33,753 nucleotides of DNA from a virus: the UHGV virus genome UHGV-0114643; one strand, given 5' to 3'. A model generated the notes under the pieces. The model worked only from the letters and a program-made list of their open reading frames with translations. It did no database searches and was not told the origin of the DNA. Both the position numbers and the translations under genes were made by a program. Positions 7,481-19,270 of the stretch are shown one piece after another. Every line of letters begins with the position of its first letter. Position 1 is the first letter of the stretch.

Positions 7481-7825
7481 CTATAACTTCCTCACTAAAT
7501 ACTTTTTAAGTGGTGTCTTCGGTTTTTCAAAGACCTCAATAGAATCTATTTTAATACCCTCACCACGCATACCTGTGGATTGGTAGATGTAGAACTCAAG
7601 CATCCCTATATTTTTAGCTGGCATATCATGCTTAACAAAGATGGTCACTGAATCTTCACTTTTAAAGATTACTGTACCATCTTTATACACAAGCTTATCA
7701 GGTTGTTTATAGTCAAGCATATCAAACATCAGAAATAGTCTTTGCTGACATTTGTCCAGCCTTGATGACAGGGCTTCTTGTATATCTGCAAAATTCTTAT
7801 AAACAACGATGTGGAGCTTAAGCAT
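7481..7825 (-). CDS. hypothetical protein (~114 aa); start moved to internal ATG (MLKLH...)
   Basis: Track start overlapped the upstream gene by 100 nt; the internal ATG overlaps the upstream stop by 8 nt. Confidence 0.5.
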   Translation of the reverse strand: MLKLHIVVYKNFADIQEALSSRLDKCQQRLFLMFDMLDYKQPDKLVYKDGTVIFKSEDSVTIFVKHDMPAKNIGMLEFYIYQSTGMRGEGIKIDSIEVFEKPKTPLKKYLVRKL

Positions 7826-11905: not shown

Positions 11906-12277
11906 ATGACGAAACGAACAAACAAAGGCCAATTCAAGAAAGGTCAATCTGGTAACCCATCAGGTAGACCCAAAGGCTCACGTAACAAGAGTTCACTGGT
12001 CAAGGCACAGTTGACTATTGATAACTCAGCAGAGTATGCTGCAAAGCTGTTTGAGGCCATTGTCACACGTAATGCTGACAAGCTTGCAGAGTTCGGATTA
12101 AAGGCTGAAGATGTAAACTTAAAGTCCATGATGGAAGCTGGTAAAACCATCATGACTCACTCAGCAGGTGAGATGAAAGCAATTGCAGCAGATAGTAAGA
12201 AACCTTCTGAAAATGGAGGTCAGGGAGCACAGGAGAACAAACCAACGTTCTCTGCTGTAGCAACTCTGAAAAAATAA
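11906..12277 (+). CDS. hypothetical basic protein, 123 aa, with N-terminal KGQSGNPSGRPKGSRNK motif
   Basis: ORF in track; ATG with AGAGGTG upstream. Confidence 0.55.
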   Translation: MTKRTNKGQFKKGQSGNPSGRPKGSRNKSSLVKAQLTIDNSAEYAAKLFEAIVTRNADKLAEFGLKAEDVNLKSMMEAGKTIMTHSAGEMKAIAADSKKPSENGGQGAQENKPTFSAVATLKK

Positions 12278-12355: not shown

Positions 12356-13771
12356 ATGAGCGAATTATTTAAACACTCGCATCTACATGCAGGTTTAACT
12401 GAAAACGGTGCTGTTAACCACACATCTTCAATGTCTGCACTGGTAGATTTCTACAAAGCTGCTGGTTCAAGCAGAACAAATGTAGAAGTTCTTCCAAACT
12501 TGTTTTACAAGGCAATGCGAGAAGATATTGATGTAGCAGTTCGAATCCTGTTACATATGCGAGATGCACGAGAAGGTATGGGTGAGCGTAAAGCGTTCCG
12601 TTATACTCTTACTAAAGCAATCTCTGACGGGATTCTTGATGAGTTTCAAGTATTACGTATCATGGACAAGATTTCTGATTTAGGTCGTTATGACGACTTT
12701 AAAATCTTTGTTGGTACACGTTACGAAACAGATGCTTTCAAGCATTTAGAATCGGCACTGTTAGACCCTGCAACATCGGCTCTGGCAGCAAAATGGTTAC
12801 CACGAGTAAAATCACGACACATGCGTTTTGTTCGTCGTTTCTGTAAGTTTGCAAATCTTTCAGAGAAGCAGTATCGAGTTCTTCTGTCAGCACTGTCTGA
12901 TACTGTTGAACAAAAGATTTCAGCAAACGAGTTTGGAGAGATTGATTACAGCAAGCTTCCTTCACTGGCTGCTGCACGTTATCAAAAACTCTTCAGTCGT
13001 AAAGATGGTGAGCGTTATGCAGCATACGTTACAGCACTGACTAAAGGTGAGACAAAGATTAATGCTGGTGCAGTCTACCCTTATGACATTACAAAGTCAG
13101 TCGGTTACGGTAATGCAACCGTTGCAAATGAGCAGTGGAAAGCTTTACCAAACTGGATGAAAGAGGGTGAAAACATTCTGTGCATGGCAGATGTATCTTC
13201 ATCTATGACTTGGGAGCGACATGGTTCTGTTACAGCGCTAGATATTGGTGTATCTTTAGCCCTGTACGTTTCAGAACGTAATACAGGTTGCTTTAAAGAT
13301 GAATTGATGGTTTACTCTAGCCGACCTCACTTCATCACATTGAGTGGTGATTTGCAGACTCGCTTACGACAAGTAAAGAGTCATGTAGAATATGGTTCAA
13401 CTGACCTACAAGCTGCTTTTGCAAGAATCCTTGAGATTGGTGTTAAAAACAACTTGACTCAGAAAGAGATGCCTAGTAAGCTTATCATCTTCTCTGATAT
13501 GCAGTTCAATCAGGTTGATGGAGCAGATGGTCGTACTAACTTTGAAGCAATTCAAGAAAAGTACAAGAAAGCTGGATATGAGATGCCACAACTGGTATTC
13601 TGGTACTTAGCAAACCGTAATGGTACTTGCGAAGTGTCTGTAAAGGATAACGGTGTAGCAATGGTATCTGGTTTCTCTCCAGCCACTTTAAAAGCTTTGC
13701 TTGGTGGTGAGAAGTTTGACCCTATCAGCGTAATGCTCAAAGCAGTAATGATTGAACGCTACGATTGGTAA
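12356..13771 (+). CDS. vWA-domain protein, 471 aa (helical N-terminal region + C-terminal von Willebrand A domain); possibly Ro60/TROVE-like or DUF2828-like
   Basis: MIDAS-like D-x-S-x-S in LCMADVSSSMTWE and beta-strand-like LIIFSDMQF seen in translation; fold family is inferred, not searched. Confidence 0.6.
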   Translation: MSELFKHSHLHAGLTENGAVNHTSSMSALVDFYKAAGSSRTNVEVLPNLFYKAMREDIDVAVRILLHMRDAREGMGERKAFRYTLTKAISDGILDEFQVLRIMDKISDLGRYDDFKIFVGTRYETDAFKHLESALLDPATSALAAKWLPRVKSRHMRFVRRFCKFANLSEKQYRVLLSALSDTVEQKISANEFGEIDYSKLPSLAAARYQKLFSRKDGERYAAYVTALTKGETKINAGAVYPYDITKSVGYGNATVANEQWKALPNWMKEGENILCMADVSSSMTWERHGSVTALDIGVSLALYVSERNTGCFKDELMVYSSRPHFITLSGDLQTRLRQVKSHVEYGSTDLQAAFARILEIGVKNNLTQKEMPSKLIIFSDMQFNQVDGADGRTNFEAIQEKYKKAGYEMPQLVFWYLANRNGTCEVSVKDNGVAMVSGFSPATLKALLGGEKFDPISVMLKAVMIERYDW

Positions 13772-13789
13772 AAAGTTTTAAAAAGGGTA

Positions 13790-13818
13790 TTGACAAAGTG
13801 TTTAATACCCTTTAATAT
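13790..13818 (+). promoter_or_regulatory. sigma70-like promoter (TTGACA-N17-TAATAT), overlapped by a 9-bp inverted repeat (AAGGGTATT / AATACCCTT)
   Basis: Consensus hexamers with canonical spacing, read directly. Confidence 0.5.
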
Positions 13819-13879: not shown

Positions 13880-13909
13880 TTGACAGACACTAAAAAATAG
13901 TGTTATAGT
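13880..13909 (+). promoter_or_regulatory. sigma70-like promoter (TTGACA-N18-TATAGT) about 30 nt upstream of the first tRNA
   Basis: Consensus hexamers read directly. Confidence 0.5.
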
Positions 13910-13936
13910 TGTTACATAGGTTGTTAAAAAGATTAT

Positions 13937-14016
13937 CTCCGTTTAGCTCAGTTTGGTTTAGCAGCACTTGCTTTGGGAGCAAGGGGTCGAGGGTTCAAAT
14001 CCTTCAACGGAGACCA
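13937..14016 (+). tRNA. tRNA-Pro (anticodon TGG), CCA encoded
   Basis: 7-bp acceptor stem CTCCGTT/AACGGAG, T-arm GAGGG-TTCAAAT-CCTTC, anticodon loop TTTGGGA. Confidence 0.8.
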
Positions 14017-14022
14017 AATTAT

Positions 14023-14100
14023 ATTCCCGTAGACAAATTAGGTAAAGTCAACACCCTTTCAAGGTGTGGTTTGAGGGTTCAAGTCCCTTCGGGAATGCCA
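14023..14100 (+). tRNA. tRNA-Glu (anticodon TTC), CCA encoded
   Basis: Perfect acceptor stem ATTCCCG/CGGGAAT, T-arm, anticodon loop CTTTCAA. Confidence 0.85.
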
Positions 14101-14107
14101 GTTTTGA

Positions 14108-14177
14108 CAGAAGACCAATTACAGCAAACAAACTTTTCAATTTCGCGCATAGAAATCCAAAAAAGATTTGGTCTGGT
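14108..14177 (+). repeat. inter-tRNA element a (CAGAAGACC ... GGTCTGGT family); candidate small structured RNA
   Basis: Shares 5' (CAGAAGACC-N-ACAGCAA) and 3' (GGTCTGGT) ends with three other spacers; terminal 5-bp helix AGACC/GGTCT. Confidence 0.6.
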
Positions 14178-14187
14178 CATTAAGAAT

Positions 14188-14264
14188 TGCGGGTATAGAG
14201 AAAGGGTGTCTCACATGTCTCATTAGCATGTTATCGGTAGGTTCGACTCCTACACCCGCCTCCA
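14188..14264 (+). tRNA. tRNA with CAT anticodon (Met, fMet or Ile2), atypical (U1:C72 mismatch, U at position 37)
   Basis: Acceptor TGCGGGT/ACCCGCC, T-arm GTAGG-TTCGACT-CCTAC, anticodon arm CATGT-CTCATTA-GCATG, CCA encoded. Confidence 0.55.
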
Positions 14265-14270
14265 AATTTA

Positions 14271-14336
14271 CAGAAGACCGTTTACAGCAAACACTTAAAA
14301 TTTTTTATAGGAAAAAATGAAAAGATACGGTCTGGT
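14271..14336 (+). repeat. inter-tRNA element b (CAGAAGACC ... GGTCTGGT family)
   Basis: Direct repeat of the element termini. Confidence 0.6.
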
Positions 14337-14347
14337 AATACTAATAT

Positions 14348-14424
14348 GGTTAGGAAGCACATAAGGCATGTGCGGTCGGCTGTTAACCGAATGGTACAGG
14401 GTTCGAATCCCTGACTAACCGCCA
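14348..14424 (+). tRNA. tRNA-Asn (anticodon GTT)
   Basis: Acceptor GGTTAGG/ACTAACC, D-stem GCAC/GTGC, anticodon loop CTGTTAA, T-arm CAGGG-TTCGAAT-CCCTG, CCA encoded. Confidence 0.8.
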
Positions 14425-14493
14425 AGATTTGGGAGAGAAGTGATTGCTCACCGATTTGTAAGGTGCAAGTCCTTAGCCTGAATAGAATAAAAT

Positions 14494-14581
14494 GCGTCGT
14501 TATCCCGTAGATGGAAGCGGTGGTGACTGTAAATCACTTGTCATTATGACTCGGTAGGTTCGACTCCTTCACGGCGCACCA
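14494..14581 (+). tRNA. tRNA-Tyr (anticodon GTA), long variable arm
   Basis: Acceptor GCGTCGT/ACGGCGC, anticodon arm GGTGA-CTGTAAA-TCACT, variable-arm hairpin, T-arm, CCA encoded. Confidence 0.8.
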
Positions 14582-14587
14582 AATAAA

Positions 14588-14664
14588 GGTTATGTAGTTT
14601 AACTGGTCAAAATACCTCCCTGTCACGGAGGATGATGAGGGTTCGAATCCCTTCGTAACCGCCA
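14588..14664 (+). tRNA. tRNA-Asp (anticodon GTC)
   Basis: Acceptor GGTTATG/CGTAACC, D-stem GTTT/AAAT, anticodon arm CCTCC-CTGTCAC-GGAGG, T-arm GAGGG-TTCGAAT-CCCTT, CCA encoded. Confidence 0.85.
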
Positions 14665-14725
14665 AATTTGAGAGGGCTTGTTAGCCCCTCCCTTAAAGAG
14701 TTCTTACGAGTATTCTTTAAAGGAG

Positions 14726-14800
14726 CAGAAGACCAAATACAGCAAGCAATTTTAATATTTCAAGCCAATTTAATTTGAAAAATTTAAAACTTGGTCTGGT
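14726..14800 (+). repeat. inter-tRNA element c (CAGAAGACC ... GGTCTGGT family)
   Basis: Direct repeat of the element termini. Confidence 0.6.
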
Positions 14801-14813
14801 TCCAACAATTTTA

Positions 14814-14940
14814 CAGAAGACCGTTTACAGCAAACAATAAACAATCTATTTCTCTGGTAAAGAAAAGGCGAAGGTTCGATTCCTTCACACGTTACGGCGT
14901 GTTGGTGTAATGGAAGCACTTAAGATAAATACGGTCTGGT
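14814..14940 (+). repeat. inter-tRNA element d (127 nt) with internal T-arm mimic (GAAGG-TTCGATT-CCTTC) and D-arm-like hairpin; candidate Y-RNA-like ncRNA
   Basis: Same termini as a-c; tRNA-like motifs present but no acceptor stem pairing, so not a tRNA. Confidence 0.5.
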
Positions 14941-15089
14941 AATCCTCTTTGCAGTGACTTATGGAGCTAATATGTCGTCCCATGAGTGCCGATGAGTTTC
15001 TTGAGCATGATTCTAGATTAGCTTACTAAGAGACAACTCTACAAACCCTTTAGCAAGGTTTGCGTAGGTTACTGCAAAGATGATTTAAT

Positions 15090-15165
15090 GGAAGTGTAGC
15101 AGAATGGTGATGCGGCAGACTTTTAATCTGACAGGCGACGGGTTCGAATCCCTCCACTTCTACCA
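15090..15165 (+). tRNA. tRNA-Lys (anticodon TTT)
   Basis: Acceptor GGAAGTG/CACTTCT, anticodon loop CTTTTAA, T-loop GGGTTCGAATCCC, CCA encoded. Confidence 0.8.
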
Positions 15166-15246
15166 AATTCGCCCCTTAACTGAAGAACACATGCGCGGCT
15201 GGAAACACCCACTCAATCAGTTCTCTACAAAGGGGCAACTTATAAT

Positions 15247-15323
15247 GGTTCAGTCGCAGATAAGGTAATGCAAGGGTTTCATAAGCCCTATGAATGTGGG
15301 TTCGATTCCCACCTGAACCTCCA
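15247..15323 (+). tRNA. tRNA-Met (anticodon CAT; could be initiator or Ile2)
   Basis: Perfect acceptor GGTTCAG/CTGAACC, anticodon arm AGGGT-TTCATAA-GCCCT, T-arm GTGGG-TTCGATT-CCCAC, CCA encoded. Confidence 0.8.
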
Positions 15324-15325
15324 AT

Positions 15326-15400
15326 TGTGGGTTAGCATAAATGGTAATGCAAACGGCTGATAACCGTTAGAAGAGGGTTCGATACCCTCACCTACAACCA
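15326..15400 (+). tRNA. tRNA-Ile (anticodon GAT)
   Basis: Acceptor TGTGGGT/ACCTACA, D-stem GCAT/ATGC, anticodon arm AACGG-CTGATAA-CCGTT, T-arm GAGGG-TTCGATA-CCCTC, CCA encoded. Confidence 0.85.
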
Positions 15401-15414
15401 ATTTCATAAAGTTG

Positions 15415-15443
15415 TTGACATTCAGATGTGACCACTTTAAGAT
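15415..15443 (+). promoter_or_regulatory. internal promoter-like element (TTGACA-N17-TAAGAT) inside the tRNA array
   Basis: Exact -35, 17-nt spacer, 4/6 at -10. Confidence 0.35.
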
Positions 15444-15676
15444 AACCTTAGTTTTCGTTAGCGTAGCGTCTATTTTAAAAACTTAAAAATAAATGCAAAC
15501 GATAATGTTTTTCTGGCAGTAGCTTAATAGGCTAAACACCAGCAGGGTATTCCAACTCCCTGTTAAAGAATTTGGCGTACTAGCCCACGGTATGATTAAT
15601 AAAGTGGGCAATATTCTAAAGAGCATCCCTTAAGGGGCTTGGCTTAAATGCAATGAGTGCTCTTTAAAATATTAAT

Positions 15677-15752
15677 GCTCCGTTAGTCTAAAGGATAGGC
15701 AACTGTCTTCTAAACAGTTCATATATAGGTTCGAGTCCTATACGGAGTGCCA
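15677..15752 (+). tRNA. tRNA-Arg (anticodon TCT)
   Basis: Acceptor GCTCCGT/ACGGAGT, D-stem GTCT/AGGC, anticodon arm ACTGT-CTTCTAA-ACAGT, T-arm ATAGG-TTCGAGT-CCTAT, CCA encoded. Confidence 0.85.
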
Positions 15753-15813
15753 ATTCTAATGGTCAAGACAACACGAGTAAGTTATCTTAGATACGCGTTA
15801 AGAGATAAACGAA

Positions 15814-15881
15814 AGTCGGAAAGTTGCTGAAGGGTAGCTCCCTTCGATAGTAAGTAGGTTCGACTCCTACCTTGACTGCCA
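15814..15881 (+). tRNA. tRNA-like element, probably degenerate or interrupted (canonical T-arm and 3' end with CCA, but no D-arm; a perfect 5' acceptor partner GGTCAAG lies at 15761-15767)
   Basis: T-arm GTAGG-TTCGACT-CCTAC and 3' strand CTTGACT-G-CCA; only 65 nt from the nearest 5' partner, 118 nt from the perfect one. Confidence 0.3.
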
Positions 15882-16046
15882 AATAGTTAGCAGATTACTA
15901 CGACGACCTTTATGGGTCTCCGCATTGACTTGAAAGAGTCAATCTCATAAGGAGGTGGTCTGTATCTCATGTTTTCCAGAACATGTAAATAATCTGAGAA
16001 GAAGCTTGACAGTGTTGAGATAACAGGGTAAGCTTCGAAATATAGT

Positions 16047-16129
16047 ATGGGACGATGTTAAGACACTAAGGCATGTGCGTAAGCCTCCAAAACTTACTCA
16101 AAGGGGTTCGAATCCTCCGTCCCATGCCA
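16047..16129 (+). tRNA. atypical tRNA, candidate tRNA-Trp (CCA inside a 9-nt anticodon loop CCUCCAAAA; D region ~7 nt too long)
   Basis: Perfect acceptor ATGGGAC/GTCCCAT, T-loop GGGGTTCGAATCC, CCA encoded; Trp is the only amino acid otherwise missing from the array. Confidence 0.45.
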
Positions 16130-16142
16130 AAGTCTTATTAGG

Positions 16143-16230
16143 GGTAGGTAGCGGCTAATGGAAGCCAAACTGTCTTGAAAACAGTTGCCATTGTAGAGAT
16201 ACGGTGAGGGTTCGACTCCTTTATCTACCG
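16143..16230 (+). tRNA. tRNA-Ser (anticodon TGA), long variable arm; 3' CCA not encoded (CCT follows)
   Basis: Acceptor GGTAGGT/ATCTACC, anticodon arm ACTGT-CTTGAAA-ACAGT, 20-nt variable arm, T-arm GAGGG-TTCGACT-CCTTT. Confidence 0.75.
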
Positions 16231-16485
16231 CCTAATAAGATTTAAAGCTGAGACTCGCTGTTCGGGCAAGTGTTTCAGGTTTCCTCTTCGTGTATTGGCG
16301 TACACGGCACTGGTAAAACACCTAGTAGGTGTCACGGAGAAGAGATAGTATCAAGCTCTCCAAAGGTTCTAGTCACCGGATTAAACAAGACTATGCAAAG
16401 GCCAATAGGTCTTTTTAGAGAATTGTTAAGATGTTTAATACCATTGTTGCTTTGGTGTCTTAGCAGTTCTCTACAAAGATTTAAT

Positions 16486-16562
16486 GCACCTATAGCCCAA
16501 CTGGAAGAGGCAGCAGACTTAGAATCTGCTCAGTGTGAGTTCGAATCTCTCTAGGTGTACCA
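16486..16562 (+). tRNA. tRNA with Leu anticodon TAG, class-II-like D-arm but short variable loop
   Basis: Acceptor GCACCTA/TAGGTGT, anticodon arm GCAGA-CTTAGAA-TCTGC, discriminator A, CCA encoded. Confidence 0.7.
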
Positions 16563-16569
16563 AATTAAT

Positions 16570-16645
16570 GCAGGTGTAGCAAAATGGTTATGCGGCTGAC
16601 TCTTAATCAGTAAGACGATGGGTTCAATTCCCTCCACCTGTACCA
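16570..16645 (+). tRNA. tRNA-Lys (anticodon CTT)
   Basis: Acceptor GCAGGTG/CACCTGT, anticodon loop CTCTTAA, T-loop GGGTTCAATTCCC, CCA encoded. Confidence 0.8.
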
Positions 16646-16651
16646 AACAAT

Positions 16652-16727
16652 GGGGATGTAGTTTACATGGTTAAAACATAAGTTTTGCAAACTTAAGTAC
16701 AGGGTTCAATTCCCTGCTTCTCCACCA
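16652..16727 (+). tRNA. tRNA-Ala (anticodon TGC) with G3:U70 identity pair
   Basis: Acceptor GGGGATG/CTTCTCC, D-stem GTTT/AAAC, anticodon arm TAAGT-TTTGCAA-ACTTA, T-arm CAGGG-TTCAATT-CCCTG, CCA encoded. Confidence 0.85.
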
Positions 16728-16733
16728 ATTAGT

Positions 16734-16808
16734 GCATCCATAGTTTAAACGGGAAAATTACAGTCTTCCAAACTGAGGTTGAGGGTTCGATTCCCTCTGG
16801 ATGCTCCA
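16734..16808 (+). tRNA. tRNA-Gly (anticodon TCC)
   Basis: Perfect acceptor GCATCCA/TGGATGC, anticodon loop CTTCCAA, T-arm GAGGG-TTCGATT-CCCTC, CCA encoded. Confidence 0.85.
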
Positions 16809-16814
16809 AATAAT

Positions 16815-16890
16815 GCTCTTATCGTATAATTGGCTATTACGGTTGCCTTGTAAGCAACTTATCAGGGTTCGAATCCTTGTGGGAGCACCA
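16815..16890 (+). tRNA. tRNA-Thr (anticodon TGT)
   Basis: Acceptor GCTCTTA/TGGGAGC, anticodon arm GTTGC-CTTGTAA-GCAAC, T-arm CAGGG-TTCGAAT-CCTTG, CCA encoded. Confidence 0.85.
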
Positions 16891-16987
16891 ATTTTGAGGT
16901 CAAGTGAAAGACCGCTTGAGTCAACTGAAGACCGTAACAAATTCCACGGAGTTGAGTTAGCGGCACAGCTTCAGACCTCTTTTCAAA

Positions 16988-17062
16988 GCTCGCTTAGTTT
17001 ATATGGTAAAGCCCCATCCTTACAAGTTGGTGAAGAAGGTTCAAGTCCTTCAGCGAGTACCA
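16988..17062 (+). tRNA. tRNA-Val (anticodon TAC)
   Basis: Acceptor GCTCGCT/AGCGAGT, D-stem GTTT/AAGC, anticodon loop CTTACAA, T-arm GAAGG-TTCAAGT-CCTTC, CCA encoded. Confidence 0.75.
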
Positions 17063-17063
17063 A

Positions 17064-17141
17064 GTTCCAGTATCCCAATTGGCAGAGGATGCAAGCTCAA
17101 ACCTTGTATTAGTGACGGTTCGAATCCGTCTTGGAACACCA
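17064..17141 (+). tRNA. tRNA with Leu anticodon CAA, class-II-like D-arm (3-bp stem, CAATTGGCAGA loop) but short variable loop
   Basis: Acceptor GTTCCAG/TTGGAAC, anticodon arm GCAAG-CTCAAAC-CTTGT, T-arm GACGG-TTCGAAT-CCGTC, discriminator A, CCA encoded. Confidence 0.7.
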
Positions 17142-17156
17142 AATTAGGAGATTCCT

Positions 17157-17369
17157 ATGAAGCCTTATGGTAGACATGGTAAAGTTGAAATTGCAAGTTG
17201 TGGTTGCTGTGCTTCTCACGATGGTGAAGAAGATTACTACAAGTGGCGTACAGACCATCGTAAACGCTTTCTCAGAAGAGATAAGAAGAAAGCTAGACAG
17301 GAATCTCGAAAGAATATTGCAGAATTAGTTCAAATGGATAGAACAGCAATCTACGAAGTTGTTTGTTAG
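17157..17369 (+). CDS. small basic Cys-containing hypothetical protein, 70 aa; last ~17 codons overlap tRNA-Arg
   Basis: ATG with AGGAGA 7 nt upstream; ORF in track; overlap makes the true extent uncertain. Confidence 0.35.
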   Translation: MKPYGRHGKVEIASCGCCASHDGEEDYYKWRTDHRKRFLRRDKKKARQESRKNIAELVQMDRTAIYEVVC

Positions 17370-17395
17370 GGGTTCGAATCCCTTATTCTGCACCA
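17319..17395 (+). tRNA. tRNA-Arg (anticodon ACG)
   Basis: Perfect acceptor GCAGAAT/ATTCTGC, D-stem GTTC/GAAC, anticodon arm GCAAT-CTACGAA-GTTGT, T-arm AGGGG-TTCGAAT-CCCTT, CCA encoded. Confidence 0.8.
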
Positions 17396-17413
17396 ATTTT
17401 AGAAGGTAATTAT

Positions 17414-17641
17414 ATGCGTAAACTCATTATTGAAAGGCATAAAGATGCTGACAAGATTGAAACAACACAAGTTGGGGACACTGACTTCATTCTTGTAGGT
17501 TGGAAATGTGACCCAATAGCAGCTATGAAGGTTGTTCATGGTTTTGCAGGAATTGAATTTAATCAAATCATATTTGAAACGCTATTACCAGAAAATCAGG
17601 ATACGTGTAATAACGCATATGTCCTGACAAGAGTTCGTTAG
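17414..17641 (+). CDS. hypothetical protein, 75 aa (paralogue A: MRKLIIERH ... DTCNNAYVLTRVR); start moved to the ATG with a proper RBS
   Basis: About 60% identical to 17686..17913; AGAAGG upstream of ATG. Confidence 0.5.
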   Translation: MRKLIIERHKDADKIETTQVGDTDFILVGWKCDPIAAMKVVHGFAGIEFNQIIFETLLPENQDTCNNAYVLTRVR

Positions 17642-17667
17642 GGGTTCGAATCCCTTATTCTGCACCA
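17633..17667 (+). pseudogene. tRNA 3' fragment (T-arm + acceptor 3' strand + CCA), identical to the 3' end of tRNA-Arg(ACG); duplication scar
   Basis: 30 of 31 nt identical to 17365-17395; no complementary 5' acceptor strand or D-arm upstream. Confidence 0.55.
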
Positions 17668-17685
17668 AATTTAAAAGGGTAACTT

Positions 17686-17913
17686 ATGTTTAAACTCATA
17701 GTTGAAAAACACCCAGAAGATGACAAGCTTGAAACAGGGAGATTTGGAGATACTTTCTTTATCAGAGTTGGCTGGAAAGCTGACCCATTAGAAGTTAGAA
17801 AGATTGTCTACAACTTTGCTGGTTTGGAATTAAAGCAAGTCATCTTTGAAACAATGTTGCCAGAAAATAAAGATACATGCAATAACGCATATATTCTTAC
17901 AAGAGTTAGTTAG
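17686..17913 (+). CDS. hypothetical protein, 75 aa (paralogue B: MFKLIVEKH ... DTCNNAYILTRVS)
   Basis: ORF in track; AAGGG upstream; paralogous to 17414..17641. Confidence 0.5.
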   Translation: MFKLIVEKHPEDDKLETGRFGDTFFIRVGWKADPLEVRKIVYNFAGLELKQVIFETMLPENKDTCNNAYILTRVS

Positions 17914-17987
17914 GGGATTAGTTTACAAGGTTAAAACCTCGGTCTTTGAAATCGAAGAAGTTGGTTCAATTCCAACATCCCCCGCCA
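17912..17987 (+). tRNA. tRNA-Gln (anticodon TTG); starts inside the stop codon of the preceding ORF
   Basis: Acceptor AGGGGAT/ATCCCCC (A1:C72), D-stem GTTT/AAAC, anticodon arm TCGGT-CTTTGAA-ATCGA, T-arm GTTGG-TTCAATT-CCAAC, CCA encoded. Confidence 0.8.
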
Positions 17988-17989
17988 AT

Positions 17990-18068
17990 GCTCCATTACT
18001 CCAATTGGCAGAGAGGCCAGACTTAAAATCTGTGTTATGTATCGGTTCGAATCCGATATGGAGTACCA
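17990..18068 (+). tRNA. tRNA with Leu anticodon TAA, class-II-like D-arm but short variable loop
   Basis: Perfect acceptor GCTCCAT/ATGGAGT, D-arm CTC-CAATTGGCA-GAG, anticodon arm CCAGA-CTTAAAA-TCTGT, T-arm ATCGG-TTCGAAT-CCGAT, discriminator A, CCA encoded. Confidence 0.7.
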
Positions 18069-18074
18069 AATATT

Positions 18075-18150
18075 AGCAGTGTAGCATAACTGGCAATGCT
18101 CCAGCCTCTGAAGCTGAATGATTAAGGTTCAAATCCTTACGCTGCTGCCA
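18075..18150 (+). tRNA. tRNA-Gln (anticodon CTG)
   Basis: Acceptor AGCAGTG/CGCTGCT, D-stem GCAT/ATGC, anticodon loop CTCTGAA, T-arm TAAGG-TTCAAAT-CCTTA, CCA encoded. Confidence 0.8.
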
Positions 18151-18181
18151 CTTCTAAGGGTTCTTACGAGAGTCCTTAAAT

Positions 18182-18255
18182 GTGGCCTTATCATAAATGG
18201 ACAATGACCCATGCTGTGAACATGGTCTATACGGGTTCGATTCCCGTAGGTCACC
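18182..18255 (+). tRNA. tRNA-His (anticodon GTG); 3' tail reads C-CCCCA rather than N-CCA and no obvious G-1
   Basis: Acceptor GTGGCCT/AGGTCAC, perfect D-stem TCAT/ATGA, anticodon arm CCATG-CTGTGAA-CATGG, T-arm ACGGG-TTCGATT-CCCGT. Confidence 0.7.
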
Positions 18256-18267
18256 CCCCAATTCAAT

Positions 18268-18343
18268 AGCTCAATTAGCTTATATGGTTAAAGCGCGTGT
18301 CTGAAAAACATGAGAACAGGGTTCAAATCCCGATGGGCTACCA
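18268..18343 (+). tRNA. tRNA-Phe (anticodon GAA), acceptor/T-stem register ambiguous
   Basis: D-stem GCTT/AAGC, anticodon arm CGTGT-CTGAAAA-ACATG, T-loop GGGTTCAAATCCC, 3' ...ACCA. Confidence 0.6.
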
Positions 18344-18359
18344 ATTTTATAGGTGCATA

Positions 18360-19094
18360 ATGAAAGAGATGACAGAACAAGGTAAAGAGATTTTTGGTCT
18401 CCTTAAATCTGGTAACGGGTTCTCTAACCCTCTTATTACTGGTGCAGCAGTTCTTGGTGGTACTGTAGCTGCCTCTCAATCATTAGTTAACTCAATTAGT
18501 TCTGTAACAGACCCAGCTACACAACAGATTTTAGTTGCTGCTGGACTGACAACAGCCTTATTAGGAAGCTTCACAACAAGCCTTGGAAGGACAACTTCAA
18601 CGACAAGTACACTCACTGAGTATGGACAAAAGTCTGTAGATGAGTTTTCACAACGTATGCAAGTAGCTAAGGGTTACTCTAATGTTATGGGAGCAGCAGG
18701 TGAACAGGTTGGATGTACACCGTTTAGTGGTATCATGGGCGTAGCTACCGAGTACGGTAATAAAGCGATGGATTTGATTAATACCTCCATAGACGCTGTA
18801 AATAGCGTTCTAAGCGATTTGCAAGATGCAATCGACCAAGGACTAGATACAATCTCTGAACTCGCTACACAGGCCGTTACAGCGATTAATGAGGGTATTG
18901 CAAAGATTACTGCATATGCTAATGAAGTAACTCAGATGATTGCAGATGAAGCAGCACTGATTGCAGAATACCTGAAAACAAATATTAATGGTTTCCTTGC
19001 GAATGTTCTACCAAGCTGGTTTGATGATTCATGTAAAACTGGTGTGATTGACACTATCGCAACTCCAGAGATGAAAGAAGCTCTGAACAAATAA
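18360..19094 (+). CDS. hypothetical protein (~244 aa), Ala/Thr/Ser/Gly-rich with hydrophobic N-terminal segment; start moved downstream of the tRNA
   Basis: Track ORF began inside tRNA-Phe; ATG at 18360 has AGGTG upstream. Confidence 0.5.
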   Translation: MKEMTEQGKEIFGLLKSGNGFSNPLITGAAVLGGTVAASQSLVNSISSVTDPATQQILVAAGLTTALLGSFTTSLGRTTSTTSTLTEYGQKSVDEFSQRMQVAKGYSNVMGAAGEQVGCTPFSGIMGVATEYGNKAMDLINTSIDAVNSVLSDLQDAIDQGLDTISELATQAVTAINEGIAKITAYANEVTQMIADEAALIAEYLKTNINGFLANVLPSWFDDSCKTGVIDTIATPEMKEALNK

Positions 19095-19095
19095 C

Positions 19096-19188
19096 GGAAG
19101 ATTAACCCTAAAAGGTAAGGGAGCAGTTTGCTAAACTGCCAGTAACCGAGAAATCGGCGTACCAGTTCAAGTCTGGTATCTTCCTCCA
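19096..19188 (+). tRNA. tRNA-Ser (anticodon GCT), long variable arm
   Basis: Perfect acceptor GGAAGAT/ATCTTCC, 3-bp D-stem, anticodon arm GCAGT-TTGCTAA-ACTGC, T-arm ACCAG-TTCAAGT-CTGGT, CCA encoded. Confidence 0.8.
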
Positions 19189-19194
19189 AATTAT

Positions 19195-19270
19195 GTGTCG
19201 GTGTCAGAAATGGTTATGTCCCTGTCTGCAAAACAGGTTTATGAGGGTTCGAGTCCCTTCCGATACTCCA
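19195..19270 (+). tRNA. tRNA-Cys (anticodon GCA)
   Basis: Acceptor GTGTCGG/CCGATAC, anticodon arm CCTGT-CTGCAAA-ACAGG, T-arm GAGGG-TTCGAGT-CCCTT, CCA encoded. Confidence 0.8.

Follow-up and report, generated by a model that had tools for sequence, protein, structure and literature searches.

Candidate Y RNA analogues beside a predicted Ro60-like DUF2828/DUF7788 gene in a phage tRNA array

Y RNAs encoded beside canonical TROVE Ro60 genes are already known from bacteria, mycobacteriophage ET08, CcrColossus, Bacillus phage G and Thermus phage phiLo. Bacterial loci of this kind hold several Y RNAs, one of them tRNA-like, within a few kilobases of the Ro gene and on its strand, and Y RNAs depend on Ro60 for their stability; the tRNA-like type, YrlA, is built as a stem, a YUAY motif, a V hairpin, a T arm, a closed acceptor stem, a D arm and again the stem (Chen et al. 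2014, PMC4201824). In phage phiLo, the small RNAs Yrl1 and Yrl2 are encoded beside the gene for a phage-encoded Ro60 ring, which assembles with the polynucleotide phosphorylase (PNPase) of the host (PMC12135203). The present study concerns four repeated elements in the tRNA array of the virus genome UHGV-0114643, analysed over a window of 33,753 nucleotides (nt), and a nearby gene for a protein with domains DUF2828 and DUF7788. We think it likely that the elements are genes for small non-coding RNAs, and that these are Y RNA analogues for the phage's Ro60-like DUF2828/DUF7788 protein. What would be new here is the use of a Y RNA-type design with a DUF2828-type protein: the papers searched gave no description of RNAs partnered with such proteins, nor of the UACAGCAA handle described below outside Dictyostelium.

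Anatomy and covariation of the four elements

Over this region the identity to two relatives of Felix O1 (Ounavirinae, Mooglevirus), Shigella phage Sf17 and Citrobacter phage BSwM KMM2, is 99%. The plus-strand tRNA array, at 13937-19270, counts 25 genes by ARAGORN, and the four elements lie in the first kilobase of the array. The original prediction placed them at 14108-14177 (el1), 14271-14336 (el2), 14726-14800 (el3) and 14814-14940 (el4), and all four are present, on the plus strand: the pattern CAGAAGACCNNNTACAGCAANCA has 4 matches in the window against 0.00 expected, and the pattern GGTCTGGT has 6 against 0.86 expected, four of these being the 3′ ends of the elements. The 5′ consensus as first written was one base out of register and had zero matches; it reads CAGAAGACC-NNN-TACAGCAA-N-CA.

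Common to all four elements are a 7-bp closing helix, a box, (U)UACAGCAA, that stays unpaired and immediately follows the 5′ strand of the helix, and a G after the 3′ strand. The pairing of AGACC with GGTCT that had been proposed to close each element is real, but the helix spans seven base pairs rather than five and its inner two pairs covary, being AGACCAA/TTGGTCT in el1 and el3 vs AGACCGT/ACGGTCT in el2 and el4. The covarying inner pairs match within elements and not across them, for which reason the reverse arrangement, with tRNAs bracketed by GGTCTGGT...CAGAAGACC, was rejected.

Folded separately, the elements adopt one common minimum free energy (MFE) shape, made of the closing helix, an unpaired stretch starting with (U)UACAGCAA (about 13 bases in el1-el3, 20 in el4) and at least one internal hairpin. 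The UACAGCAA box is single-stranded in every predicted fold. Three of the elements are short. In el1 the closing helix (14112-14118/14168-14174) is followed by the box TACAGCAA at 14120-14127 and an inner hairpin at 14140-14156, with the G at 14175. The helix of el2 (14275-14281/14327-14333) encloses the box at 14283-14290 and an inner U6/A6 hairpin, and that of el3 (14730-14736/14791-14797) the box at 14738-14745 and an inner hairpin UUUCAAG...UUUGAAA. No protein-coding signal was seen in the elements, as the original prediction had it; the sole open reading frame (ORF) over el1, a 105-aa TTG ORF at 13909..14226 spanning tRNAs and el1, is a mechanical call and not credible.

The fourth element is longer and carries a tRNA-like module. 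In its MFE fold, the closing helix (14818-14824/14931-14937) and the box (14826-14833) are followed by a V hairpin (14845-14868), the hairpin before the T arm being small, with a 7-nt loop. Then come the T arm (14870-14886; GAAGG-UUCGAUU-CCUUC), a closed acceptor-like hairpin, here called AS (14887-14902; ACACGU-UACG-GCGUGU), the dinucleotide UG and the D arm (14904-14920; GUGU-AAUGGAA-GCAC). The interiors had been described as AT-rich and variable; el4 departs from this description, its interior being neither AT-rich nor unstructured. The AS stem covaries across homologues (ACACG/CGTGT, ACTCG/CGAGT, ACCCTTC/GAAGGGT), and when 13 long elements drawn from six lineages were folded jointly by RNAalifold, T, AS, D and the closing helix all emerged, 17 of 20 pairs showing a double-sided compensatory change.

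An Rfam scan at gathering thresholds returned nothing besides tRNAs. The view that the elements are not tRNAs stands, although positions 14820-14894 within el4 reach 28.8 bits with the Rfam tRNA model, just below its 29-bit cut-off. A degenerate conventional tRNA at this position was rejected, as the acceptor pairing that it implies is lost in homologues and the AS hairpin covaries. Also rejected was a circularly permuted, functional tRNA-Thr(GGU) in el4: the loop that would serve as anticodon loop varies (CUGGUAA, CCGGUAA, CGGUAA, CUAUGAA, AGGGUAU), and the acceptor is a closed hairpin without encoded CCA.

The neighbouring gene and its linkage to the elements

The DUF2828/DUF7788 gene (plus strand, 12356..13771; 471 aa) encodes the proposed protein partner of the elements, which begin 340 nt past its end and extend to 1170 nt beyond. 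Pfam returns only DUF7788 (E 6e-44) and DUF2828 (E 7.5e-27) for this protein, TROVE not being matched, and the protein falls into PHROG 850 ("RNA-binding protein") with an E-value of 6e-178. A model obtained with AlphaFold2 from a 40-sequence alignment has a predicted local distance difference test (pLDDT) score of 89.7 and a predicted template modelling (pTM) score of 0.89. When this model was compared with the PDB by Foldseek, the best 11 matches were all to Ro60/TROVE proteins (E 1e-9 to 3e-6), aligned over their full length (about 490-550 columns). Among them are the Ro60 of Thermus phage phiLo (second best), Rsr of D. radiodurans, complexes of human Ro60, and Xenopus Ro60 together with Y RNA or with misfolded RNA; the ranks after the 11th are taken by isolated von Willebrand factor A (vWA) domains. 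The protein is thus predicted to be a Ro60-like ring, consisting of a HEAT-repeat/TROVE-like domain and a C-terminal vWA domain. In the latter, the stretch DVSSSM has D279, S281 and S283 invariant across 40 homologues, a DxSxS motif that we read as a MIDAS (metal ion-dependent adhesion site) motif. A preprint reaches the same structural conclusion for gp130 of Bas63, a Felix-O1-like phage in which the gene lies directly upstream of tRNA genes; it reports that gp130 counters the Ppl defence and offers the guess that "some tRNA genes ... are possibly Y RNAs", no RNA being identified.

The original prediction overlooked this gene, along with the tRNA-like module of el4 and the wide distribution of the element family. 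DUF2828/DUF7788 proteins occur in at least 710 sequenced phage genomes, among them Felix-O1-like, P100-like, Twort-like or 6ec-like, KVP40-like and Campylobacter phages and cluster L mycobacteriophages; DUF2828 proteins are also found in many gut Firmicutes and in plants. Just upstream of the window gene lies another gene, for a small basic DUF5681 protein (11906-12277, plus strand), and the same neighbour is present in Yersinia phage vB_YenM_P778 (L041:5558-5917; L numbers designate loci of this study). This protein could be a conserved third partner.

The same proposed pairing of RNA and Ro60-like protein recurs beyond this window, in phages and bacteria numbering in the hundreds. The termini singled out by the original prediction are conserved outside this genome: a scan of IMG/VR with the 5′ pattern found elements in about 30 Felix-O1-like genomes, their order being conserved and syntenic across genera, and elements are present at distant DUF2828 loci. 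One distant 143-kb phage contig, with a DUF2828 protein 49% identical, carries five analogous elements directly after the gene; their helices differ (AGAAGCU/AGCUUCU and others), the box and the G after the helix are the same, and three of the five hold T-AS-D modules.

A further 75 viral loci, with DUF2828 proteins 38-45% identical to that of the window, were fetched, and a covariance model, R1, was built from 27 short elements of non-Felix phages, no Felix-O1-like sequence being included in the seed. All seven closing pairs change on both sides within this seed, the first alternating between A-U and U-A and the second being G-C in 26 of the 27 sequences. On the window, R1 finds el2 at 40.7 bits (E 4.6e-8, or 1.2e-6 in an 848-kb search), el1 at 23.8 bits (E 8.6e-4), el3 at 23.3 bits (E 1.1e-3) and the 5′ part of el4 at 18.7 bits. 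A fifth match, on the minus strand at 7633-7687 (23.6 bits), has a 7-bp helix and a box changed at an invariant position (UACAGUAA); lying inside a 145-aa ORF on that strand, and with its box altered, it was rejected as probably due to chance.

Over the viral DUF2828 loci and the window (848 kb), 76 of 77 R1 matches fall on the strand of the protein gene, nearly all of them about 20-700 nt from it. The model was also applied to 78 DUF2828 loci from bacteria or metagenome-assembled genomes (MAGs), covering 592 kb and with proteins 31-41% identical; here the gene strand received 54 of 55 matches, mostly 60-400 nt upstream of the start. Pooled over 1.4 Mb of DUF2828 loci, the figure is 130 of 132. 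A strict pattern (ACAGCAA with an adjacent 7-bp segment having a perfect Watson-Crick partner within 150 nt, then G) gave 45 matches on the gene strand of the viral loci and 0 on the opposite strand, against 0.75 in resampled sequence; for the genome loci the counts were 60, 1 and 0.5, respectively. Elements lie beside the gene in named phages of other families as well, namely Listeria P100, Staphylococcus 6ec, Campylobacter F371 and Mycobacterium Faith1. In Faith1, a short, a long tRNA-like and again a short element directly follow the gene for a "Ro-like RNA binding protein".

Among the loci with no tRNA gene within ±5 kb, 21 of 34 still carry an element, which indicates that the element is linked to the protein gene and not to tRNAs. 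This count bears on the processing signals suggested in the original prediction. In this reading the elements would punctuate the tRNA array or direct its processing, for instance by giving nucleases a place of entry from which the neighbouring tRNAs are released. All four elements do sit between tRNA genes here, and many DUF2828 loci adjoin tRNA arrays. However, the tRNA-free loci exclude such a function as the general role of the family, the majority of inter-tRNA spacers in the window array are without an element, and el3 and el4 adjoin each other rather than flank a tRNA. We give this explanation next to no credence.

Synteny and strand bias likewise speak against the elements having no function of their own, whether as tRNA genes in decay or as miniature mobile elements whose termini are inverted. 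Such an origin would account for the tRNA score at 14820-14894, for the T-AS-D order, which is the expected remnant of a tandem tRNA duplication, and for termini that are partly inverted repeats. It would also fit locus L013 (IMGVR_UViG_2706796742_000001), where, from 5544, an el4-type 5′ half (up to ...GAAGGTTCGATTCC) runs, inside the T arm, straight into the 3′ end of the following tRNA (from CTCCACTTCTACCA); the fusion removes the remainder of the el4-type element and shows recombination between T arms inside the array. A tRNA-duplication origin of the el4 module is in fact plausible. Yet every helix is maintained by compensatory changes, and homologues keep the AS hairpin but not the acceptor pairing that the tRNA match implies. 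The elements vary by such changes and not by presence or absence beside target-site duplications, none of which were seen at their ends; order is kept across genera and 130 of 132 matches follow the strand of the neighbouring gene. Decay or mobility as the whole explanation is very improbable, and with it falls the idea of mobile insertions voiced in the original prediction.

A different possibility is that the elements are not free small RNAs at all, being instead cis-acting sites in longer transcripts for the DUF2828 protein or another factor, with a role in autoregulation or transcript stabilisation. Most bacterial and MAG elements share the strand of the DUF2828 gene and precede its start codon by 60-400 nt, a position that fits a 5′ untranslated region (UTR); the elements that directly follow the stop codon in many phages fit a 3′ UTR. 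The window elements are differently placed, in a tRNA operon separate from the gene, 340-1170 nt past it, behind a hairpin and two strong promoter-like sites and interspersed with tRNAs; copies in L095 and L118 lie 2.5-4 kb from the gene, and the loci hold several tandem copies each, with different cargo including tRNA-like domains, as is typical of trans-acting Y RNAs. A purely cis-acting role thus appears unlikely to us.

The invariant box, single-stranded in all predicted folds and set beside interiors that vary as in seed-plus-scaffold small RNAs, might also be the seed of base-pairing regulators, exposed to host or phage RNAs containing UUGCUGUA; the DUF2828 protein would then not be needed. 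An 8-nt seed kept in phages of Proteobacteria, Firmicutes, Actinobacteria and Campylobacter calls for a universal target, none of which was identified, and it would go unexplained why the elements are so tightly linked to one protein family at loci that otherwise differ greatly in gene content. We judge regulation by pairing of the box to be quite improbable. Among the options listed in the original prediction, that of processed small RNAs is the one that we favour, in view of the covarying helix, the unpaired conserved box, the strand specificity and the linkage to a gene for a protein of RNA-binding type.

In other phages the interiors enclosed by the handle, i.e., by helix and box, can be larger, with domains of 100-250 nt. 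Structured cargos that measure 180-250 nt and have no likeness to tRNA are found at L040:360-573, L040:2602-2848, L062:4793-5032, L072:6471-6721, L094:6754-6936, L051:628-833 and L073:4409-4659. Several large cargos form recurring classes, e.g., ...GAACCUUUCUGGAGGGGAAAG... in L050, L051 and L052.

In Listeria P100, two genes lie 0.6-1.3 kb downstream of the DUF2828 gene (L201:4572-6455), one annotated as a metal-dependent (HD) phosphohydrolase and one, 1.3 kb away, as a tRNA-splicing (RtcB-type) ligase. The arrangement echoes the rsr-rtcB RNA-repair operons that exist in bacteria. The neighbours of two bacterial DUF2828 loci (PP2C, HNH and M24 peptidase) are uninformative.

Likeness to Y RNAs and to Dictyostelium Class I RNAs

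In its succession of terminal stem, YUAY, V, T, AS, D and terminal stem, el4 shows the order of parts seen in YrlA (RF02553). The module is confined to el4; el1-el3, having no tRNA-like module, resemble the short second Y RNAs of the YrlB type. As with bacterial Y RNAs, there are several RNAs at the locus, near the gene for a protein with a predicted Ro60 fold and on its strand. Two of the long relatives give sub-threshold matches to the YrlA model itself, over the tRNA-like part: L067:4877-4939 scores 39.2 bits (E 3.6e-5), and L038:7707-7815 scores 40.9 bits, with an E-value of 8.7e-6 when 40 kb were scanned. The differences from the YrlA/Rsr system concern both partners: the protein is of the DUF2828/DUF7788 type and not Pfam TROVE, and the RNA has the UACAGCAA box beside a short 7-bp helix in place of the motif GNCGAAN0-1G. 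The comparison with phiLo is similar. Both phages encode a Ro60-fold ring (a predicted one in the window) with at least two small RNAs alongside; in phiLo, unlike here, the Ro60 is a canonical TROVE protein, and the RNAs, which lie outside any tRNA array, have no UACAGCAA box but a CGAA motif in a long bulged stem.

A second likeness is to the Class I RNAs of Dictyostelium. According to Kjellin et al. 2021 (PMC7919456), this family is found only in dictyostelids; its members measure about 60 nt, contain 32-41% GC, and combine a covarying stem of 6 bp with an invariant terminal G and an 11-nt motif left unpaired. In permissive scans, the Rfam model Dicty_Class_I (RF01414) gave 25.7 bits for el2, 21.3 for el1 and 17.6 for el4, and for relatives 26.8 and 26.3 bits (L038), 30.7 (L094), 28.8 (L062) and 27.5 (L095). 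All eight matches (17.6-30.7 bits) fall exactly on elements, with none elsewhere in about 160 kb scanned. Every score is under the 41.5-bit cut-off, and unbiased scans gave E-values no better than about 0.07-0.09; therefore we treat the match as a lead and not as a finding.

The likeness can be followed part by part. The Rfam consensus of Class I, GaUcuC-CUUACAGCAA...GagAuC-UG, has the same stem as the phage handle, the same box at the same position and the same 3′ CUG. Phage elements and Class I RNAs have in common a terminal stem of 6-7 bp with compensatory changes and a conserved G-C pair near its end, an unpaired (CC)UUACAGCAA directly 3′ of the 5′ strand, a 3′ end in ...CUG, a variable interior, a length of about 60 nt and a GC content of 25-40%. 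The stem of the phage family is a 7-bp helix with double-sided changes at all seven pairs (27 sequences). With respect to the 11-nt motif of Class I, CCUUACAGCAA, in which U3, C6, C9, A10 and A11 are invariant, el1, el2 and el4 have UUACAGCAA and el3 has AUACAGCAA, without U3; C6, C9, A10 and A11 are invariant in the phage family, and the first two C's are not conserved. The settings differ, as the Dictyostelium upstream sequence element (DUSE), a promoter element about 60 nt upstream in Dictyostelia, is absent from the phage locus, which has sigma-70-like promoters in the window, and as the hosts of the RNA are phages and bacteria, not amoebae. Class I RNAs are abundant and developmentally regulated, and the only protein shown to bind one directly is Rnp1A, a protein with RNA recognition motifs (RRM). 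It is conceivable, if doubtful, that helix and UACAGCAA handle are the recognition signature of DUF2828-type Ro-like rings wherever the protein occurs, and that Class I RNAs are the eukaryotic members of the family, Y-like partners of a DUF2828 protein.

Array setting and proposed mechanism

At the head of the tRNA/element array lie two sigma-70-like promoters on the plus strand, at 13790-13818 and 13880-13909, put forward from their match to consensus (10 and 11 of 12 positions, respectively); a hairpin at 13782-13813 (plus strand) is located directly 3′ of the DUF2828 gene. Several other plus-strand features of the array came to light. A tRNA-Tyr(GTA) with a long variable arm, at about 14496-14582, was missed by ARAGORN and scores 22.8 bits with the Rfam tRNA model; a tRNA-Tyr is annotated at the equivalent position of Sf17. 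Two tRNA-like sequences, at 15761-15880 and 16047-16130, are called by neither ARAGORN nor Rfam. Each encodes CCA and has a good T arm and an acceptor stem of 7 bp, yet the D and anticodon regions are aberrant or greatly expanded; these may be tRNAs made unusual by insertions, or else mimics of tRNA. The segment 15340-15527, which overlaps tRNA-Ile and the following 276-nt non-tRNA spacer, gave a sub-threshold match to the Rfam model tmRNA_permuted (34.7 bits, cut-off 47; E 9.4e-5). Bona fide tmRNA genes are present at other DUF2828 loci, a permuted one in L077 (71.7 bits) and one in L114 (85.5 bits).

The 149-nt spacer directly after el4 (14941-15089, plus strand) is predicted to fold into a long closing helix and a three-way junction with an energy of -48.6 kcal/mol (z = -5.1), a stability equalled by 0 of 200 shuffles. 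It has no Rfam match and is kept, at 92-98% identity, only among Mooglevirus-like genomes. This spacer may add one more structured RNA to the array, perhaps a Y-type RNA with a long hairpin.

The mechanism that we propose starts from the handle, formed by the 7-bp terminal helix (5′-AGR.../...YCU-3′, then G) and the single-stranded UACAGCAA abutting its 5′ strand. Because the handle is invariant while the interior varies freely, and because the elements are linked to the gene, we infer that the handle is the protein-binding site. The interior would be an exchangeable module, either a small hairpin as in YrlB (el1-el3) or a tRNA mimic as in YrlA (el4). Transcription of the tRNA array from the promoters at 13.8-13.9 kb probably yields the RNAs as well, and the nucleases that mature the flanking tRNAs probably free them. 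The RNAs would form ribonucleoproteins with the Ro60-like protein. Taking the complexes of Ro60, Y RNA and PNPase in Deinococcus, Salmonella and Thermus phage phiLo as a guide, we propose that the variable module may gate the ring or else link it to an enzyme, of the host or of the phage, that handles RNA. Such a particle might serve in RNA surveillance or repair, or in counter-defence, during infection; repair or counter-defence is suggested by the RtcB-type ligase gene near the P100 homologue and by the Ppl phenotype.

Several observations weigh against the elements being Y RNA analogues for this protein. On the side of the protein, the link to Ro60 comes from a predicted structure, with TM-scores of only 0.44-0.65, and searches with phmmer and with a 40-sequence profile gave no match at E <= 10 to solved structures, the Ro60 chains in the PDB included. 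On the side of the RNA, the Rsr-binding motif GNCGAAN0-1G is absent from all four elements, and the Rfam YrlA model has no match to them at E <= 10. The scores of the relatives with this model (40.9, 39.2 and 25.8 bits) are far under its 69-bit gathering cut-off, and YrlA-like scores also arise at junctions of adjacent tRNAs, e.g., L063:6452-6514. The folding energies of the four elements are ordinary (z = -0.4 to -1.9), so the case rests on conservation and covariation and not on stability. About one third of DUF2828 loci have no element by R1, and where the element lies 60-400 nt upstream of the start codon, as in many bacterial loci, it would also fit a cis-acting leader. Finally, expression, processing, binding and downstream function are all inferred.

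If the elements are Y RNA analogues, the pairing turns a domain of unknown function into a candidate ribonucleoprotein of the Ro60-Y RNA type, and it names the exact candidate RNAs for the one phenotype reported, the Ppl counter-defence in phage Bas63. Part of the unannotated DNA inside phage tRNA arrays would also be explained. The Y RNA design, with its protein-binding handle and exchangeable module, possibly a tRNA mimic, would be seen to be used with a second, quite different handle. Should the likeness to Class I RNAs reflect common ancestry or a common partner, a long-standing question about amoebal RNA would be opened to direct experiment; and if those RNAs were indeed Y-like for DUF2828 proteins, both the plant and amoebal members of this protein family and the Class I RNAs would gain a first testable function.

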